Of a stretch of 64,000 nt of DNA, positions 1 through 55,684 are shown one piece after another. How positions within the stretch are numbered: position 1 is the stretch's first letter; each line of letters starts with the position of its first letter. The stretch lies in the UHGV virus genome UHGV-1963645. One strand, 5' to 3'. Below the pieces are notes generated by a model. The model did no database searches. It worked only from the letters and a program-made list of their open reading frames with translations, and had not been told where the DNA came from. This DNA comes from a virus. A program made the translations under genes and the position numbers.

Positions 1-617
1 GCTTCATTTGTGTCCACGATCTTAGACATGCGTGCAGCGCCGCGCTCTGTCCAGAGTGTAAGGCTTCTGGCGTTCTTACCAACAGAGTAACTTCCGGTTA
101 CTCTGTTCTTAAATTCTCTTAATTTTAAACCAGTTAGAAGAAAGTAATGCTTACCTTCTTCAAAGCGGTCAAGGTTGCGAGACAAATTGTTGCGAATATT
201 GGCTTCATCGACCCCATACCCTCTAGCAAGAGTTTCGGTTGTCACGACACGTACTCCCTGCCATTCCAGAACGGGAATTTCATCCGGCTGATTCTGAACA
301 ACCACCAGTTCCGATTCCTGAACTGAAGGTGCATAAATTTTTTCTGATTTAACGTTAGTTGCTTTCATTCTGTGTGCCTCCTTGCGTGCTTCGGCTGCGA
401 CGGTTGCGTAATTCAGATGACCCTGTTCGAGCAGGTATTCACGGATATCGGTTAGCAGAATGCGGTGAACCGCGTGTTTGTCCTTTCTCCGGTAAAGTTG
501 TTTGGTGATCATGAAGTAGTTGGCAATAACGCCCGGTATATCCCTGGTACTGATACAGGCAGTGTGCTGTTCAATTGCCTCGATCATCTCTTCACGGGTG
601 ACTAATGACGTTCTCAT
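1..617 (-). CDS. ant: Antirepressor-like protein, N-terminal part (gene continues past the left edge of the window)
   Basis: Minus-strand reading frame with no stop to position 1; ATG near 617 preceded by AGGAGGG; N-terminus MRTSLVTREEMIEAIEQHTAC... is clearly paralogous to the 345-aa ORF at 49735-50772; start overlaps icd stop as in immI operons. Confidence 0.7.
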   Translation of the reverse strand, partial: MRTSLVTREEMIEAIEQHTACISTRDIPGVIANYFMITKQLYRRKDKHAVHRILLTDIREYLLEQGHLNYATVAAEARKEAHRMKATNVKSEKIYAPSVQESELVVVQNQPDEIPVLEWQGVRVVTTETLARGYGVDEANIRNNLSRNLDRFEEGKHYFLLTGLKLREFKNRVTGSYSVGKNARSLTLWTERGAARMSKIVDTNE

Positions 618-835: not shown

Positions 836-899
836 AATGGCAGCCTCCTTTTGCTAATTTAAGGAGCTACCGCGTGAGGTCTCAATCTCAATGGCGGTA

Positions 900-1010
900 G
901 CACTGACTGGGTTGAGACTACCGGCGCAAAAGGGAACCGGCCTGCCTTTCGGCAGCCCAGCCAGCACTACCATTGATCTCTGAGCTAAACGCTACGTATG
1001 GCTGTGCGAT
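900..1010 (-). ncRNA. c4: c4-like antisense regulatory RNA (approximate boundaries)
   Basis: ORF-free leader upstream of icd with long-range complementarity (GGTAGCACTGACTGGG vs CCCAGCCAGCACTACC) and an internal element complementary to repeats upstream and at the icd RBS; same architecture at 51055-51165. Confidence 0.4.
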
Positions 1011-1018
1011 GGCATGAC

Positions 1019-1048
1019 ACAAAAAAAGACGCTTTTGGCGTCTGTGTC
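1019..1048 (-). terminator. Intrinsic-terminator-like hairpin plus U-run (minus strand)
   Basis: Minus strand reads AGACGCCAAAAGCGTCT followed by TTTTTTT; 150 nt downstream of pacB stop; conserved in second immI copy at 51172-51200. Confidence 0.35.
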
Positions 1049-1175
1049 GCCTTTTGCATTATCCGGGGTCTCAATCCCGGCACCCGTTTTAATGAGGTGC
1101 CTGATAAGCATAAACCGAAAATGCCTCAAGGCGCAAGAGGTCAGGTTCAATGTAACATCGGTAGTTAAAAAACAC

Positions 1176-1192
1176 AATTTATTAGAGCAAAT
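1176..1192. promoter_or_regulatory. C1-repressor operator-like site
   Basis: AATTTATTAGAGCAAAT, about 14/17 match to reverse complement of ATTGCTCTAATAAATTT (recalled P1 C1 operator consensus). Confidence 0.5.
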
Positions 1193-1194
1193 AT

Positions 1195-2679
1195 TCATTC
1201 GTTAAGCCATGCCAGAGCTTCATCAACCTGCGCTTCGTCTTCGACGCTAAGCACTTCATCCTGGGGAACATAATCCGCCAGCATAGCGAAACAATATGTA
1301 TCCCAATGGTCTGGTGAGTGCAGGTTGAGTTTTTTCTTCATATCCTCCTTACTCATCACCTTCCATTGACCTGCGGAGTTAATCCCTACAGGGATTTTCG
1401 ACGCTTCCTCAATAGTTTCATTACCCTTATCCAGTCTCATACGACCAGATTTTACGGCCTCTGCGGCTTGAACGTTGGCATAAGCACGTTTATCAAAGTA
1501 CAGGCTCTTATCTTCACGGCTATGCATCTTTTTACCCCAGCGTATACGCTGTACGGTAATACCATAATACTCGTACATCAGATCCGCCGTTGCTTTACCC
1601 AGGCCATCGCCGTCTATCGCTATGGTGATATTTGGGAATCGCTCAGGATTACATTCTGCGAAAATTTTGGCGGCAAGCTGCGTTTCTGTAACGTCTGTGT
1701 ATTCCAGCATTCGATAGTTGATTACACGGCGTTTATTTCGCTGGCCGGACACCATCATGATATTGATAACGGACTTATCCCGTCCCGTACCACCAGCAAC
1801 GTCCACACATGCAAGCCAGCCCCATCCTTTTGCAATCTTGACTTTCCGCCGCGTTGCACGTTCAACCTCATCACGTCCAAGAAGGAAGCCATCCTGTGAT
1901 TTAGGGAATAGGCCGCGTACCTTAATCATGTACATAGGGTTATCACGCCCGCCGTACTCCGCCAGCTTCATTTTGATAAATGCTGGCGTTACCAACGGTG
2001 ATTCCTCACTGTTAAGCGTGATCGCCGTATAAACGCCATCAGGGTTACCAGGACGCTTGGCCAGTTTATGGTGTGTATCGTAGAAATAGCCGCTTGGGCG
2101 TGTAGGCTGTGACAGCAATAAGATGCGGTTATCCTGTCCGGTAAGAGCACCGGTGATGATACCGAAAGCTCTATCACTGACACCGGAGGCTTCATCGATA
2201 ATATACAGAAGATGATCTGCGTGTTCACCGGCGAGAGCTTCTTCACTTCCCAGACGAAAGCCCTTCGGTACTACAGTCCATACACCTTTACCAGTAATCT
2301 CATAGAAAGCGGTTTCTGTCAGAACAAAATAATCAGCAAGCCATGGGAAACGGCTGGGGGCAGTAGCCCAGTTTATCTTGATGTACTTGAATATACCGGT
2401 CATTACCTGCTGAATTTTGTTCGCAACGATAATGGCACGGGCACCTGGATACATGATTATGAACAACATGATCATGATAGAAGTCATGTCTGATTTCCCG
2501 GTACCGTGACCAGACGAAACAGATGTCTTGCTACCCTGTTCCTGCACAGACTCAATAATCAGATCCTGCTGCCAGGTAGGTGTTTTGCCGAACAAAACAT
2601 CAGCGGCAGCAATCCAGTCATAACGATATAGCGCCACCAGCTCGCGCCAACGTGGATCCGTTACGCAACTTCTGGCCAT
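1195..2679 (-). CDS. pacB: Terminase large subunit PacB-like
   Basis: 494-aa ORF directly downstream of pacA with ATGA overlap; size and position match P1 pacB. Confidence 0.85.
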
Positions 2680-4498: not shown

Positions 4499-5542
4499 TT
4501 ATCTAACGCTCGACGAGTGACTTGTGATAGCGCCGACTCCAAGCGCGTAATCAAAGAACAATCGTTGATGCATCGCCAGCCTACCGTGCGTCTTCTCCCA
4601 ATTATCGCGGTCACGCTCAATATCACGCTGGCATGACTGGCACAGAGGAATTGCGTAAATGTCATGCGCGCATAATCGACTATGACGAACGATATAAGGC
4701 GTAATGTGAGCGCCAGCTCCCGCCGCTCCACACCCACAGCATGGACGGGAAGCAACAAAGTCCATGTACTCAGGTAATTTTAGCGATTGCAGTTTTGGTA
4801 TTTTGAAATGCGCCATGCCAGGGTCGGAGTCAACATCCACAGGGCATACTTTTGCACGCATCGGCGCGGCGCGTTCTTCCATCATCTGAACATATGCTGT
4901 AGCGCGATCGTCATACGGGCGAATATCCGCCTCTTTCAGAGGTCCGCTATCCTGCGTTGCGGCTTTCATCTTATTTATTGATATACGGCAAACTTCTTCC
5001 GGCATCAGGTGCATCATGTTGCGCATGAAAGCCCACCAGCACAGTTCCTGAATACTTAAATCATGGCCATCTGAAAGCCCCATTTCCTGACGGGCGACAT
5101 CCAGTATCCAGTTAACGCGATTATTATGCAGCGTTTCTTTCAGCTCATTAAAACCACGCATCCGGTAATGGTTATCGTGATGCCAGCACAACAACACCGC
5201 GCTATTGTCTCGTTCTGCGTGGACAATATGGTTGTCACACCAGCTACGATCTGCGGCCTGGCATTGCCCCTCTTTCCTGCGCAACCACGCCACCAGCGCG
5301 TCAATTCCACCAATACGGCGAAACAGTTCATCGCTGTTAAAAAACGGCTGCAACGCCTCATTTGTTGCCATAGTTTGCTCGGAAACAACGAGGCCGTCGT
5401 CCATGTGCTCGATTAACTCACGCGGCACCGGCTCCATAATAAATTTACGGCCAGCCTCCACCAGCTTTCTGACTTCCTGATCCACTTTGAATGTGGCGAC
5501 GCCAAGCTCTTTTTGTACAAAGGGAGTAATTATGGCTTTCAC
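4499..5542 (-). CDS. pdcB: PdcB-like protein (Cys/His-rich C-terminus)
   Basis: 347-aa ORF between the doc-phd operon and lpa; CCGCG...H...C..C motif cluster near C-terminus. Confidence 0.5.
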
Positions 5543-14471: not shown

Positions 14472-14488
14472 AGATTTATTAGAGCAAT
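14472..14488. promoter_or_regulatory. C1-operator-like site
   Basis: AGATTTATTAGAGCAAT, 16/17 to reverse complement of ATTGCTCTAATAAATTT. Confidence 0.55.
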
Positions 14489-46820: not shown

Positions 46821-47417
46821 ATGGCTGTGATTCCAATGTCGTACTCCCCGGGTACTGTCGCTCGTCGATTTTCGATCCTGGACGGAGTTACCATCCAGGG
46901 TGTGCTTTACCAGGTTATATGGGATTCCAAAACCCCATTTGCAGCTGTAATAGAGGCTGCGCCTTCTGTTATCGATGGTGATATGCGGCATAAGGTTGTC
47001 GCTACTCTTGAACTTCAACGTCGCCCGCAGCTTGAAGGCGTACTGGTAAGGAAGTTCTGGGAGGATAGCGATGTTGCCCAGATTGAAGGTATCGTGGTTG
47101 ATGGAACTGTCCGGGATGTCGGTTTAGCTACTTTTGTTTACGAAACCGTAGCCTCAAAAGCTGGTGTTGTTTTGCTCAGTGATAATGAGCAATACGAAGG
47201 TGGAAAAGCTCTTTGGCAACATATCGCCCGTCGCTCTTCCGAGCTAAAAGTGTTTATCCTCGACACCGATGCCGCTCAGTATTACCCGTTTGACGGCGAA
47301 CGTGTTTGCTATGACGGGGTAAGTATTCCTGAATCCGAGATATGGAGTGAACACCCAGATCGAAGTAAGCATGGGGTTGTTCTGGTCGCTGAATCCATAA
47401 TTGGAAATGCGGCATAG
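46821..47417 (+). CDS. Hypothetical protein
   Basis: Start at ATG after AAGGGGG RBS. Confidence 0.5.
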   Translation: MAVIPMSYSPGTVARRFSILDGVTIQGVLYQVIWDSKTPFAAVIEAAPSVIDGDMRHKVVATLELQRRPQLEGVLVRKFWEDSDVAQIEGIVVDGTVRDVGLATFVYETVASKAGVVLLSDNEQYEGGKALWQHIARRSSELKVFILDTDAAQYYPFDGERVCYDGVSIPESEIWSEHPDRSKHGVVLVAESIIGNAA

Positions 47418-47599
47418 CAGTAAAAAATTCCTTGCTCCTTAAAATGGGAGAGGGTTAATCTACGTATGCTAAGCATAGATATGGCCTCAGATTAATGTTA
47501 AGCGTCTTGCAGGACGCGTAATGTTATCTGGGGCTTTCTTCTATCTGCTTTTCGGGTAATGCCTGAAGCAGATAGCCTCAAGCACCCGCAACGATTGTA

Positions 47600-47926
47600 T
47601 CAATGTCTGGCTTTTTTTCTATAGAAATCACCTGGAAGGGTGAATATCCACATCAGAAGAAATGTAGCAGCAAACATGATCCCTAATGGCCAGACCGCGC
47701 CAAAGAAAATCCATACTAAGATCTCCTCTGCTCGTTCTTTGCGGTCGATATCGACAAGCATTTTTCGGCTGATCATGTATACACAGAAGCCAATACAAAC
47801 ATATCCTGCAAAAGCGATCGCTAACTGTAAAAAATCAGATTGCATCTCCGACCTCAAACTGAAAACGCCAGGTGACTCCAGATTAGAGCAATCTATCACC
47901 CTCTGAATCCTGCCGGTATACCCCAT
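47600..47926 (-). CDS. Small membrane protein downstream of repL
   Basis: Hydrophobic 2-3 TM ORF; start uncertain. Confidence 0.3.
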   Translation of the reverse strand: MGYTGRIQRVIDCSNLESPGVFSLRSEMQSDFLQLAIAFAGYVCIGFCVYMISRKMLVDIDRKERAEEILVWIFFGAVWPLGIMFAATFLLMWIFTLPGDFYRKKARH

Positions 47927-48741
47927 TGTTCGTTATCTTTATTTTTGGCTAAAACCGCATTAAGAGCTTCGTTTACCGTCATGCAATGCGGCAGATTATC
48001 GAAGTTTGATACCCCGCCAATATCAGGAGAACGCTTGTTCTTCAGGTAAGCATATTTCCGCGCTGCCGCCTCTACTTTCTGCTTGAACTCATGTTTTTGA
48101 GCGCGTTTTTTGGATAACCGCAGATTGTCAGCCTTTGCTTTTGCCTCAGCGATCCATGAAGTCAATTTTTTGAGTCTGGTCGTTCCGGCACCGCCGGAAA
48201 CTGATCTTTTTGTTTTTTTAACTTGTGACTTCTTATTCTTTATTGCCACGTCATCCTGACAGGGGGAGGGGGTATCATTTTGACATGGGGGTGTGGATAA
48301 AAAATTAAATAAAGCCAATGTCTTAGCGAGAACAGCTTTAACCTTGGTTGCCGCTGAAGAGATCTTTAATTTGCTTTCAATCAGCGCATTTTTGGCTTGT
48401 TGTGCGAAGGCCAAAAAGGATGGTGTAAACCGGTACAGGTTAGCACGACGTTCATGGTGATCGCCGATAACAATCTCTACAGACAGAATTCCTTTGTTTA
48501 CAGCTTCACGGAATGCACGAACGACGGTTGATTGGCTATAACCAGTTTCTGCCGCGATCAGGCGGTGAGGCTTGTGAATGAAGTATTCACTGGTTGTTGC
48601 CGCTAGATTTGCACATTGCGACAGGATATGCCCGGCGCTACGAGATAGACCGGAGTGTGTTACAAAGCAGGCCAATTCATAGCCAGAAAAAGTAAAATCG
48701 CTCATCGTTATACAGCTCAGGAAAGTGACTTTAGCCAGCAT
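47896..48741 (-). CDS. repL: Lytic replication initiator RepL
   Basis: 281-aa ORF downstream of kilA; HTH-like segment SQSTVVRAFREAVNKGIL. Confidence 0.8.
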   Translation of the reverse strand: MLAKVTFLSCITMSDFTFSGYELACFVTHSGLSRSAGHILSQCANLAATTSEYFIHKPHRLIAAETGYSQSTVVRAFREAVNKGILSVEIVIGDHHERRANLYRFTPSFLAFAQQAKNALIESKLKISSAATKVKAVLAKTLALFNFLSTPPCQNDTPSPCQDDVAIKNKKSQVKKTKRSVSGGAGTTRLKKLTSWIAEAKAKADNLRLSKKRAQKHEFKQKVEAAARKYAYLKNKRSPDIGGVSNFDNLPHCMTVNEALNAVLAKNKDNEQWGIPAGFRG

Positions 48742-48770: not shown

Positions 48771-49571
48771 TTAGCGCGTTGCCGCGACAGGTACCAGCAC
48801 ACCAGCATCAAGCAATCGCTTCATCAGCCACTGCTGACCTTTGCCGGTTATACGAGTCGTGAAAGAAATCCTGCTTCCATTGCTTGTATCGATCACGGTT
48901 TCTTTAAGGGTGAAATACCCACGGGATATGTATTCTTGTTTGGGGACGTTCCTGCGTTCACCGGTTGCGATCAGAATTCCGTTATCACGCAACCAGGTGA
49001 AGAGATAGTTTTGGCCCAGGCCGAGCACTTTGGCATAGTTGCCGATTAGAACCCCGCTGGCGGTAGCAACGCGTTCGGCGAATTCGACTTTAGGCGCATC
49101 CATAAGCATTTTTTGCTCCAGCCGTTGCTTTTGCTCTGCCAGGTCGGCAGCCAAACGGAGAGCTTCAGGGAGACTCTGCGGAATAGCAGGTTGTAATCTT
49201 CCGGCTCGATAGTCGATAAATGTCTGGTTTACCTTCAGCCGAAACGCGGGAGAAATCCAGCCTGCGTACTCCACAGCGAGCAATTCATGGGCAAACGTAC
49301 CGCCGCCACGGCCTTCGAACGAAACTATGCAATTCTGCATAGTTTCTTTTTCAAGCTCTTCGATAAGCTGTTTGGCTGACAGCGTTCTTAGCCATTGAGC
49401 TGGCGCTTTATGGGCACCGAGTCCGCTCGCTCTGTGTAGAGCATTAAGGTTGTAACGGCCAGCGCGGTCGGTCGTAATTTCAACACCACAAATAACAGGC
49501 AGAGTGGTTGAAGGATCGACATTTTGATGAAGGTTTGATATATTCATATCCGCATTGAATGTTTGTTGCAT
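48771..49571 (-). CDS. kilA: KilA (KilA-N domain plus antirepressor-like C-terminal domain)
   Basis: 266-aa ORF; C-terminal half paralogous to C-terminus of the ant ORF; first gene after the operator at 49641. Confidence 0.75.
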   Translation of the reverse strand: MQQTFNADMNISNLHQNVDPSTTLPVICGVEITTDRAGRYNLNALHRASGLGAHKAPAQWLRTLSAKQLIEELEKETMQNCIVSFEGRGGGTFAHELLAVEYAGWISPAFRLKVNQTFIDYRAGRLQPAIPQSLPEALRLAADLAEQKQRLEQKMLMDAPKVEFAERVATASGVLIGNYAKVLGLGQNYLFTWLRDNGILIATGERRNVPKQEYISRGYFTLKETVIDTSNGSRISFTTRITGKGQQWLMKRLLDAGVLVPVAATR

Positions 49572-49640: not shown

Positions 49641-49657
49641 AAATTTATTAGAGCAAA
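49641..49657. promoter_or_regulatory. C1-operator-like site heading the kilA-repL operon (Op53-like)
   Basis: AAATTTATTAGAGCAAA, 15/17 to reverse complement of consensus. Confidence 0.65.
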
Positions 49658-50990: not shown

Positions 50991-51054
50991 AATGGCAGCC
51001 TCCTTTTGCTAATTTAAGGAGCTACCGCGTGAGGTTCCAATCTCAATGGCGGTA

Positions 51055-51165
51055 GCACTGACTGGGTTGGAACTACCGGCGCAAAAGGGAACCGGCCTGC
51101 CTTTCGGCAGCCCAGCCAGCACTACCATTGATCTCGGAGCTATGTGCTACGTATGGTTGTGCGAT
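51055..51165 (-). ncRNA. c4: c4-like antisense RNA (second copy, different predicted specificity)
   Basis: Same architecture as 900-1010 with paired substitutions GGTCTCAA->GGTTCCAA and TTGAGACT->TTGGAACT. Confidence 0.4.
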
Positions 51166-51487
51166 GGCATGACACAAAAAAAGACGCTTTTGGCGTCTAT
51201 GTCGCCTTTTGCATTATCCGGGGTTCCAATCCCGGCATCCGTTTTACTAAGATGCCTGTTTAGGATAAACCGAAAATGCATTAGCACGCAAGCAAGTTAA
51301 TGTAGCATATGAAGCTAAAAAAATAAAATAATTAGAGCAACTTGCAACCATGTAAATTATTTCTCTGGTAACTAAAATGTATGAGTTTAATTGATATGGG
51401 TCAAAGATTTTGACCATTGCATGGTGAAACTTTATGCTACAAAATGTTATTTTAAGGCGTTTTATCTGTGGCAGGAGATAGTTAATC

Positions 51488-51838
51488 ATGTCATCTGAAC
51501 ATGTTCGTAAAGGTGTAACAAATGCGAAATTCAATGAAGAGCAATCTAATATTCTCTTTATTGAAATAGGAATTCTGTCAATACTGATAGGTTTAATGTC
51601 TAAATCATGGTGGGCCTTTGGCGGTTCTTTTCTTGGACTGATTTTTAGTTTAAGAATAAAATTTCTAGCAATACCATTGATGATTGTATTTAGCTTAGTA
51701 TGGGGAGCTATTGGCTATAGTATTGGTACTTTGTTTGAATCAACAGCAGCAAGTATTGTTTTGGGGGTAATTGCTTTCCTGAGTGGTTTGGGTACTCATT
51801 TTGCTGCCGTGCAATGGGCAAATGATATTGCAGAATAA
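51488..51838 (+). CDS. Small three-TM membrane protein (AT-rich cassette gene 1)
   Basis: 116-aa ORF with three hydrophobic helices; AGGAG RBS. Confidence 0.5.
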   Translation: MSSEHVRKGVTNAKFNEEQSNILFIEIGILSILIGLMSKSWWAFGGSFLGLIFSLRIKFLAIPLMIVFSLVWGAIGYSIGTLFESTAASIVLGVIAFLSGLGTHFAAVQWANDIAE

Positions 51839-51860
51839 TTACAGATAAGAAGCGAAAAGA

Positions 51861-52337
51861 ATGAATATGAGATGGTTTTTATTATTTGTATCGTTAGTTT
51901 CAGCAGGAACATTTGCAAAAATTGATCCTCTACAATGGAATGTAATTGAAGAGAGAGGGGGGAGAGAATATACAATCCATAATCATAATGGTGATAAGAT
52001 AAGTTTTTTATGTGATATGGGATTCATGTATGGTTCACCAGATAGTGCAGGTAGTTTAGGCTTGTTGCTAAGTTCGTCGAATAATAAAAAAGAGTATAAT
52101 GCTGACAAGAATAAAATAGTATTAACTATAGATGGTGATCAATATCCTTTTAGCAATCTTGGATCAATGGTTGGAGATTCTTGGTGGTATGCCTTTTGGC
52201 AAGATGCAGCAGATTCAAATGCTAATATGATTGATGCTTATGTTGATAATGAAAAAATTGCTACATTCCCTCTTTCTGGGCTAAGTAAGTTGTATCAACA
52301 AGCCAAAATGGATGGATGTATTAAACGAGGCAAATGA
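51861..52337 (+). CDS. Secreted/periplasmic protein (AT-rich cassette gene 2)
   Basis: Signal peptide MNMRWFLLFVSLVSAGTFA; 158 aa. Confidence 0.5.
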   Translation: MNMRWFLLFVSLVSAGTFAKIDPLQWNVIEERGGREYTIHNHNGDKISFLCDMGFMYGSPDSAGSLGLLLSSSNNKKEYNADKNKIVLTIDGDQYPFSNLGSMVGDSWWYAFWQDAADSNANMIDAYVDNEKIATFPLSGLSKLYQQAKMDGCIKRGK

Positions 52338-54802: not shown

Positions 54803-55684
54803 ATGCTTTTACCTCTTTTCCCGCTACCATCGCGGCCAACTGAATTGATCCAGTTCCGTCAGCCAAATATTGCTGATGCGATGCGTTTCAACTCGATAAC
54901 ACCGGAGGAACAAGAACAACAGACAACGGCGTATTTAAAAGCCTTGCTGGCTGAACCCGCGAAATATGATCCCCTGACATGGACGGCGCAGGACCGGATT
55001 ACCGCGTTATGGTGGATATTTACTGGCTCCCGTGAAACACCGGTCGAGACATTCACCTACACCTGTAAACATTGCGGTAAAGAGCATTATTACGATTGCG
55101 ATATGAATGCTCTGGCTGAAGATATCCAGGTCCTGGAAGTGGAACCGTTCATTGACGATATTGAGGTGTCTGTAGAGGGCGTGCCTTATCAATGGCGTAT
55201 CGTGCCGCTTGATGGTTGGGCAATGGAAATGCTGGAGATGCGCCGTGCAGCATTGCCACCTGAAGACGACGCGGAATTCAAAGAAGCGATCGTTGATTTG
55301 CGTTTTTGGGAATTCGCTTATCAGTGTGAACTTTATAACGATGTTAGCGGTACTCGTGAAGAGCAGGCTGAGCGTCGTTATGAAACGATCAAACGGATGG
55401 CCATTGATACTGAATTTATGAAGCTGGCGGCACACATCCGGGTGGCTCATGAAAAGCTCGAACATGGTTTACCGTGCTACATCGATAAAGGCGAAATGCG
55501 TCTTCGTCTCCCGCCGCACAAATGCCCAAACCAGGATACAAAGGAGTCCACAGAGGGTGCGTATACCCGTCTGTGGGTGCCCTTTCGGGCTACCGACTTC
55601 ATTCCACAGGTGGGGATTGAAAAGCTATCAGACCTTAGTGTCCAACCTGGTTTTGTATGGGGGTATACCGATTCAGGACGCTGA
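54803..55684 (+). CDS. Tail-associated hypothetical protein
   Basis: 293-aa ORF in operon. Confidence 0.5.
   Translation: MLLPLFPLPSRPTELIQFRQPNIADAMRFNSITPEEQEQQTTAYLKALLAEPAKYDPLTWTAQDRITALWWIFTGSRETPVETFTYTCKHCGKEHYYDCDMNALAEDIQVLEVEPFIDDIEVSVEGVPYQWRIVPLDGWAMEMLEMRRAALPPEDDAEFKEAIVDLRFWEFAYQCELYNDVSGTREEQAERRYETIKRMAIDTEFMKLAAHIRVAHEKLEHGLPCYIDKGEMRLRLPPHKCPNQDTKESTEGAYTRLWVPFRATDFIPQVGIEKLSDLSVQPGFVWGYTDSGR

Follow-up and report, generated by a model that had tools for sequence, protein, structure and literature searches.

The c4 antirepressor switch has been understood since 1990, and the change of specificity between phages P1 and P7 is classical. The immI operon of these phages, in which the c4 antisense RNA is followed by icd and ant1/2, was reportedly described by Citron and Schuster in 1990 and 1992. 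In P1, the c4 RNA is released by RNase P and acts in trans, and the translation of ant is coupled to that of icd. Here we describe two modules of this type in a stretch of 64,000 nucleotides (nt) of the virus genome UHGV-1963645, referred to below as the window, which belongs to a P1-like phage-plasmid; the functional RNA strand is the minus strand. The left module lies straight after pacB and the right one before kilA and repL, as the initial annotation of the window had placed them. It is fairly probable that they are two paralogous immI-type switches in which one contact of the c4 RNA, a', has been recoded, with partial and asymmetric insulation between the two modules.

The layout of P1 immI is also that of the modules in the window: an operator or, in the window, an operator-like site, the targets a1 and b1, a terminator-like hairpin, c4, the targets a2 and b2, the latter over the ribosome-binding site (RBS) of icd, and icd overlapping ant. 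The P1 record annotates a1, b1, a2 and b2 in the order found here. P1 and P7 further resemble the window in that a' lies in the c4 junction and b' in a loop, and in that specificity is set by adjacent two-base changes with matched targets. When the P1 and P7 leaders are aligned, two adjacent a' bases and two b' bases differ, and the differences are matched at a1, a2, b1 and b2. The window is unlike P1 in having a D6-like c4 scaffold, two modules in one genome that differ at a' only, an extra constant a2-like site and, for the left module, a position between pacB and c1 and an Ant paralogue centred on an ORF6N domain.

The IsrK-orf45-anrP locus of Gifsy-1 (Salmonella) shares with the window a leader that matches the isrK model (RF01394) and ends in an intrinsic terminator; with such a terminator, transcription should yield both a short RNA and an antirepressor mRNA made by read-through. 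In Gifsy-1, the short terminated IsrK RNA acts in trans on the read-through transcript and activates translation of the antirepressor, and a processed c4-like RNA, STnc1160, is found downstream of IsrK (PMC4825925). Unlike the window, Gifsy-1 has orf45 instead of icd as the small upstream open reading frame (ORF), and the activation in trans by the short RNA is known for Gifsy-1. The segment from a1 to b1 is the 'c4-a1b1' motif of Weinberg et al. 2010 (PMC2864571). IsrK is a structural homologue of seqA of P4, and an analogy to seqA, CI and seqC of P4 has been drawn (PMC4825925). P4 immunity is similar in that a processed leader RNA (CI) pairs with sites up- and downstream (seqA and seqC) on the same transcript, but CI causes premature transcription termination of replication genes and not occlusion of an icd-ant RBS. 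Extra ant modules are known in the P1/D6-like plasmids RCS47, pTZ20_1P and pYU39_89, for which the accessible parts of the reports give gene content only (PMC6906374, PMC6799933). No analysis of the specificity elements or codes of such extra modules was found in the literature searched, with most subscription journals and the D6 genome paper outside its reach. The mechanism itself was known, as was the extra ant module; the window holds a variant architecture of a known system, with the a' contact recoded.

Comparison of the two leaders

The left (copy 1) and right (copy 2) leaders, annotated as near-identical at 840-1200 and 50998-51350, are similar and not identical: identity is 88% over about 700 nt, and the flanks diverge. 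Between a1 and the start of icd (836-1080 versus 50991-51235), the two cores can be aligned without a single gap, and 12 of their 245 nt differ. Half of these 12 differences are one dinucleotide swap repeated in three 7-nt elements, with the variable bases at 881-882, 915-916 and 1070-1071 in copy 1 and at the same positions plus 50155 in copy 2. The probability of finding six of the 12 differences within 21 of the 245 nt is 1.3e-4 (hypergeometric), even before complementarity is demanded, and all six preserve Watson-Crick complementarity, so both strands of the pairing did change jointly. The strings read as first quoted, with GGTCTCAAT at 878-886 and 1067-1075 and its partner TTGAGACT at 912-919 in copy 1, and GGTTCCAAT at 51033-51041 and 51222-51230 and TTGGAACT at 51067-51074 in copy 2. 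The claim of a base-paired RNA element stands insofar as the pairing is real; no local hairpin is involved, and the pairing is a long-range or trans pairing of a' with a2 or a1.

That the two copies are an assembly artefact or a trivial duplication, for which the high similarity of the cores and nothing else can be cited, has a negligible probability. Besides the core differences, both flanks diverge and the Ant paralogues are distinct. Each leader also occurs without the other, at 100% identity, in dozens of plasmids of independent origin, which excludes an assembly duplication, and both occur together in pP136-6 and pB19429_2.

Structure of the c4 RNAs and position of the swap

Both c4 genes match the full-length Rfam C4 model (positions 1-87) on the minus strand above the gathering threshold (Table 1; cut-off 45, and 50 for isrK). 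With the icd-like and ant ORFs that follow, the C4 matches bear out the assignment of both loci as c4-icd-ant (immI-type) modules. The minimum free energy (MFE) folds of the two c4 RNAs are identical at −46.4 kcal/mol (z = −6.0 for the left and −5.1 for the right copy) and equal the Rfam consensus, with a long closing stem, two hairpins and an unpaired junction. In both the Rfam alignment and the MFE fold, GUCUCAA or GUUCCAA (a') takes up the unpaired junction of 8 nt that separates hairpin 2 from the closing stem. Because both copies fold identically, the swap leaves the structure of c4 untouched. The substituted bases are outside every internal helix of c4 and are complementary to a2 and a1. 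The CU-to-UC swap touches only the a' interaction, changing a', a1 and a2 together, and no difference between the copies is found in b' (CCUUUUGC), b1 and b2 (both GCAAAAGG). The P1/P7-type layout is present in both: the exposed a' and b' have their complements in a2 and b2, of which b2 covers the icd RBS, and a second target pair, a1/b1, lies upstream of c4 (the c4-a1b1/isrK motif). The icd ORFs match NCBIfam phage_ICD_like, and the icd stop and the ant start overlap as ATGA in both modules, an arrangement expected to couple icd to a KilAC antirepressor in each, the KilAC domain of the left one being predicted from its homologue in phage JL22. The sequence GCCA directly 3' of the c4 closing stem is at most suggestive of RNase P processing.

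Two other features of the c4 region were noted. The RefSeq/PGAP annotation of dozens of plasmids has a coding sequence for a 39-amino-acid (aa) 'ash family protein' almost wholly inside the c4 gene, upstream of icd. The corresponding ORFs are at 854-973 and 51009-51128 in the window, both on the minus strand, and at 4569-4688 and 54881-55000 in pP136-6. The ORF over c4 gave no NCBIfam match at E <= 0.01, and the annotation looks like a protein call placed on an RNA gene. The second feature is site A, UUGAGAUU, which is found in every D6-type leader directly 3' of c4, overlapping the start of a2; together with the a2 of allele 1 it forms the tandem UUGAGA-UUGAGAC. Site A may have been left behind by the duplication of a target, or it may offer c4 another place to dock.

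Covariation and reassortment of the pairing elements

A pattern scan of IMG/VR gave 89 loci, of which 73 are real c4 genes of the D6-like scaffold. Pairs were counted in 27 distinct leaders of the D6-type and a third scaffold; leaders of the P1 scaffold were read by a direct parser, on which the agreement of a1 also rests, as the pair-count alignment is 23 nt too short to cover a1. A MAFFT alignment of all three c4 scaffolds placed a'/a2 of the P1-type one column out of register with the D6-type and was not used for the counts. Across the 27 leaders all 1269 cells pair (1269/1269), against 25-51% when the partners are slid by 1-3 columns. Pairing is complete (100%) in each of the long-range helices, and compensatory changes are found in four of the seven pairs of a'-a2 and in three of the eight pairs of both b'-b2 and b'-b1. 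The internal helices of c4 are likewise 100% paired, with nine of 27 pairs (7, 1 and 1 per helix) changed on both sides, and the stem of the terminator-like hairpin is invariant in 27 of 27 leaders. The observed covariation score was reached in none of 500 shuffles. This covariation indicates that a' pairing is under selection, and the substitutions are, as had been proposed, compensatory within a genuine RNA pairing element.

In the D6-type scaffold, two a' alleles (GUCUCAA and GUUCCAA) and two b' alleles (CCUUUUGC and CCUUUGAC) occur in all four combinations among the 73 IMG/VR c4 genes. At these loci a2 and b2 always match, and a1 and b1 match wherever the leader reaches, with the a1 of one locus (L055) as the exception. 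The third scaffold has a' AGGCCAA and b' CCUUGGAC. The P1 scaffold combines two a' alleles, those of P1 and P7, with five b' alleles, and the targets are matched. Natural reassortants include the right module of JL22, with the a' of P1 and the b' of P7, and the middle module of pB19429_2, with the a' of P7 and the b' of P1. Apart from the b' of P1 and P7, the P1 scaffold has UCAUGUAC, UCAUUCGU and UCGUAAGU, always with matched b1 and b2. Reassorted codes or further b' alleles on this scaffold were read at L101 (JL22 right), L105:42353-42600 (pB19429_2 middle), L065, L093:36280-36527, L098:47874-48121 and L108 (D6).

Two leaders appear to be recombinant. The exception mentioned above, L055:5042-5289 (IMGVR_UViG_2778261639_000014), has a1 UUGAGAC with a' GUUCCAA and a2 UUGGAAC and is the sole a1 mismatch among the 73 D6-type loci; it points to a crossover that took place recently between a1 and c4, or else to a1 pairing that matters less than pairing at a2. 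In the left module of p95JB1A (L093:28570-28960) the operator/promoter region is that of the left module of the window up to a1, after which another c4 scaffold follows, with a' AGGCCAA, b' CCUUGGAC and an a2 that pairs through a G-U wobble. Judged from such sequences, specificity cassettes have clearly been exchanged as units between conserved flanks.

Codes carried by related genomes

In PLSDB, a D6-type leader is present in 331 plasmids and is joined to pacB in about 158; two D6-type leaders are found in four plasmids, two of which could be identified among the matches listed. The window combines GUCUCAA (left) with GUUCCAA (right), both D6-type and both with b' CCUUUUGC, and pP136-6 has the same codes. 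Plasmid pB19429_2 has three modules, the pair of the window and its middle P1-scaffold reassortant. In p95JB1A a left module of the third scaffold is followed by a middle one of the P1 scaffold (P7 a' with UCAUGUAC) and a right D6-type module with GUUCCAA. The left modules of pEC13-3, MS14385 plasmid 3 and pMTY10828 were read as third scaffold; the right ones are inferred to be D6-type with GUUCCAA because these leaders are 100% identical to the right leader of the window. JL22 has D6-type GUCUCAA on the left beside its P1-scaffold reassortant on the right, RCS47 has D6-type GUCUCAA with CCUUUGAC on the left and the P7 code on the right, 673R5 has the third scaffold on the left and the P1 scaffold (P7 a' with UCAUUCGU) on the right, and D6 has D6-type GUCUCAA and a P1 scaffold with P1 a' and UCGUAAGU. 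An a' code was repeated in none of the 11 multi-module P1/D6-like genomes examined (two to three modules each), and b' is common to two modules only in the three D6/D6 pairs. The distinct a' codes per genome are consistent with selection for distinctness.

Predicted cross-talk between the two modules

Duplex energies were calculated as nearest-neighbour estimates on short segments, which ignore tertiary context and Hfq. On this basis the a' of the left c4 (GUCUCAA) pairs with its own a2 at −8.6 kcal/mol, with the a2 of the other module at −1.3 kcal/mol and with site A at −7.0 kcal/mol. The corresponding values for the right a' (GUUCCAA) are −8.3, −1.8 and −0.7 kcal/mol. The b'-b2 duplex common to both modules is predicted at −11.0 kcal/mol. 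Given the selection on a' pairing, a mismatched a' should make c4 a weaker repressor. If the predicted energies hold, the right c4 should thus have little effect on the left module, and the canonical module on the right (Ant1/2-kilA-repL) may still be restrained by the left c4. Partial and asymmetric insulation is expected because b'/b2 and site A are common to both modules.

The initial annotation had gone further and read the window as carrying two heteroimmune antirepressor switches, on the ground that a two-base difference of the same kind separates P1 from P7. There are two c4 modules, and adjacent two-base changes of such a kind do distinguish the phages; however, the comparison was incomplete, as the alignment has b' differing as well, and in the window a' and b' do not both differ. 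Full mutual heteroimmunity, with the a' difference alone making the c4 RNAs orthogonal as in P1 versus P7, would agree with the near abolition of non-cognate a'-a2 pairing in the predictions, with the clear selection on a' pairing and with the lack of repeated a' codes in the genomes examined. It is nevertheless unlikely, given that b', b1 and b2 are identical here and that site A offers the left c4 an alternative on the right leader. Partial, probably one-way insulation is the likelier reading. The opposite view, that there is no functional insulation, would make the c4 RNAs redundant, with b'-b2 dominating and the a' alleles being markers of donor cassettes. The b'-b2 duplex is the strongest one predicted and is common to both modules, cassettes move as units (the left module of p95JB1A and the mosaic right icd are cases in point), and L055 has a mismatched a1. 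We consider this view quite improbable. To create either allele, two bases had to change in step at each of three sites, and this speaks for the importance of a' pairing. Moreover, every one of the four a' x b' combinations has been kept, with targets that match perfectly, and in each of the three genomes that have two D6-type modules these differ in their a' allele.

Covariation alone does not separate action in cis from action in trans. The pairing partners are all part of one transcript, with a1 and b1 upstream of the terminator, and the Gifsy-1 homologue has a cis structure that controls translation (PMC4825925); the covarying pairs might then fold the primary transcript for c4 processing or termination, with no specificity in trans. 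Against such a role, which we hold to be very improbable, the P1 GenBank record annotates the sites as binding targets of c4. From the P1/P7 literature it is also known that c4 complements in trans. The reading of two switches with a recoded a' contact and partial, asymmetric insulation is itself weakened by several points. As the b'/b2 duplex covers the RBS, is the stronger one in the predictions and is identical, the modules could be fully cross-repressed, and the natural recombinant L055 tolerates a mismatched a1. The agreement of a1, a' and a2 within the window is no independent evidence of selection, because the roughly 200 nt are inherited as one cassette. Furthermore, the 11 multi-module genomes are related by descent, the three D6/D6 cases make too small a sample to demonstrate selection for distinct codes, and the duplex energies carry the simplifications given above. 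Taken together, the observation on which the initial annotation was built is confirmed, and its interpretation is partly supported.

Proposed mechanism and regulation

By analogy with P1, the c4 RNA would be cut out of the leader, presumably through RNase P. Its exposed elements, a' in the multiloop junction and b' in the hairpin loop, would find their partners, a2 and b2, on a transcript of the same kind, and this pairing would block translation of icd and, via the coupling, synthesis of the antirepressor. The short terminated leader with a1 and b1 probably competes for c4, as is known of its Gifsy-1 homologue IsrK; given the covariation of a1 with a' and of b1 with b', a role of the leader as anti-antisense or decoy is likely. 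In this scheme, the CU-to-UC swap would recode the a' contact alone, with the c4 fold unchanged. We infer the trans action of c4, the degree of cross-talk and the target of the left ORF6N Ant.

Both leaders are headed by an operator-like 17-mer found in a consensus scan (Table 1), which would belong to the promoter of each module and may place it under the control of C1. The left one is directly downstream of the pacB stop, and the equivalent position in P1 is Op51. Near the left operator, no promoter-like site turned up in a simple search with a consensus; the right operator is overlapped by one 9/12 promoter match, the region having three matches in total against 1.5 expected by chance. In the whole window, 12 sites match the C1 operator consensus of P1, ATTGCTCTAATAAATTT, with at most three mismatches, against 0.25 expected by chance; they include 30667-30683, 14472-14488, 34189-34205 and 49641-49657. 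Such an excess is in keeping with a C1 regulon that is dispersed as in P1.

Organization of the two modules

The order of the elements, 5' to 3', is the same at both loci: C1-operator-like 17-mer, a1 hairpin, b1, terminator-like hairpin with U7, c4, a2, b2 over the AAGGAGG of icd, a 73-aa icd-like ORF and ant. Coordinates are listed in Table 1. The left ant is cut by the edge of the window, and its full-length homologue in JL22, 99.6% identical in DNA, has ORF6N and KilAC domains. This full-length protein is 57% identical to the right Ant1, with the N-terminus and KilAC in common and ORF6N in the middle. In the near-identical phage JL22 the left module is placed between pacB and c1. In the right module, the megablast match to ant1-icd of P1, P7 and JL22 stops at about 50963, and because this end of homology is inside icd, the right Icd is a mosaic; a D6-like cassette supplies the leader and roughly the first nine icd codons.

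Upstream of the right module, 51488-52337 (+) contains, at the position of the P1 sim genes, small ORFs (116 and 158 aa) whose products by eye resemble membrane or secreted proteins; many plasmids with the right leader have the same layout. A hok/sok-type antitoxin RNA (Rfam sok, 97 bits) is at 47413-47587 (-), just beyond repL, and three tRNA genes at 27776-27848, 29852-29924 and 29930-30001 (all -) recall the tRNA cluster of P1 and RCS47.

Table 1. Positions of the elements of the left and right c4-icd-ant modules in the window.
Module	Feature	Position	Strand	Remarks
Left	C1-operator-like site TTTGCTCTAATAAATTG	1175..1191	-	2 mismatches to P1 operator consensus; head of module
Left	isrK/c4-a1b1-like leader RNA	1022..1100	-	Rfam RF01394 isrK, 59 bits; intrinsic terminator at end
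Left	a1 target UUGAGAC	1068..1074	-	within loop of hairpin 1063-1080 (predicted fold)
Left	b1 target GCAAAAGG	1050..1057	-	complementary to b'
Left	intrinsic-terminator-like hairpin + U7	1021..1043	-	between b1 and c4
Left	c4 antisense RNA gene	890..977	-	Rfam RF01695, 75.0 bits
Left	b' CCUUUUGC	926..933	-	12-nt loop of c4 hairpin 2
Left	a' GUCUCAA	912..918	-	variable bases 915-916
Left	site A, constant UUGAGAUU	884..891	-	in both leaders; overlaps first 2 nt of a2
Left	a2 target UUGAGAC	879..885	-	variable bases 881-882
Left	b2 target GCAAAAGG	847..854 (feature 844..854)	-	overlaps icd Shine-Dalgarno AAGGAGG 844-850
Left	icd-like ORF, 73 aa	614..835	-	GTG start; NCBIfam phage_ICD_like, 49.6 bits
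Left	ant, 5' part	1..617	-	cut by window edge; ORF6N domain E = 8e-19
Right	C1-operator-like site GTTGCTCTAATTATTTT	51325..51341	-	3 mismatches; head of module
Right	isrK/c4-a1b1-like leader	51177..51255	-	Rfam RF01394, 58.3 bits
Right	a1	51223..51229	-	
Right	b1	51205..51212	-	
Right	terminator	51176..51198	-	
Right	c4 antisense RNA gene	51045..51132	-	Rfam RF01695, 76.7 bits
Right	b'	51081..51088	-	
Right	a' GUUCCAA	51067..51073	-	
Right	target region	50999..51046	-	
Right	site A	51039..51046	-	
Right	a2 UUGGAAC	51034..51040	-	
Right	b2	51002..51009	-	
Right	Shine-Dalgarno	50999..51005	-	
Right	icd, 73 aa	50769..50990	-	mosaic: D6-like cassette at 5' end, remainder P1-like
Right	ant1, 345 aa	49735..50772	-	KilAC domain
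Right	kilA	48771..49571		after ant1
Right	repL	47896..48741		after ant1

Implications for P1/D6-like elements

Phage immunity whose specificity depends on a few bases in an antisense RNA has its textbook example in c4. In the sample studied here, P1/D6-like plasmids carry one to three such switches, in which a' and b' are freely reassorted and no a' code is repeated within a genome. A tentative extension, to which we give less than even chances, is a combinatorial a' x b' code on at least three scaffolds that provides two to three mutually insulated switches per genome, each with a different Ant paralogue and with the codes kept distinct by selection. If this were true, the Ant paralogues could, for example, have different C1-type repressors of competing elements as their targets, and the window would represent the minimal step to a new code, together with a one-way hierarchy that puts the canonical immI under the left c4 as well. 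With the same scaffold, the same b' and a different a', the window is a natural experiment that could reveal the share of each contact in repression. What has been a curiosity of two phages, P1 and P7, would become a coding scheme of the whole family, relevant to superinfection immunity, to whether P1-like plasmids with resistance genes can share a cell or are incompatible, and to the design of orthogonal RNA repressors.

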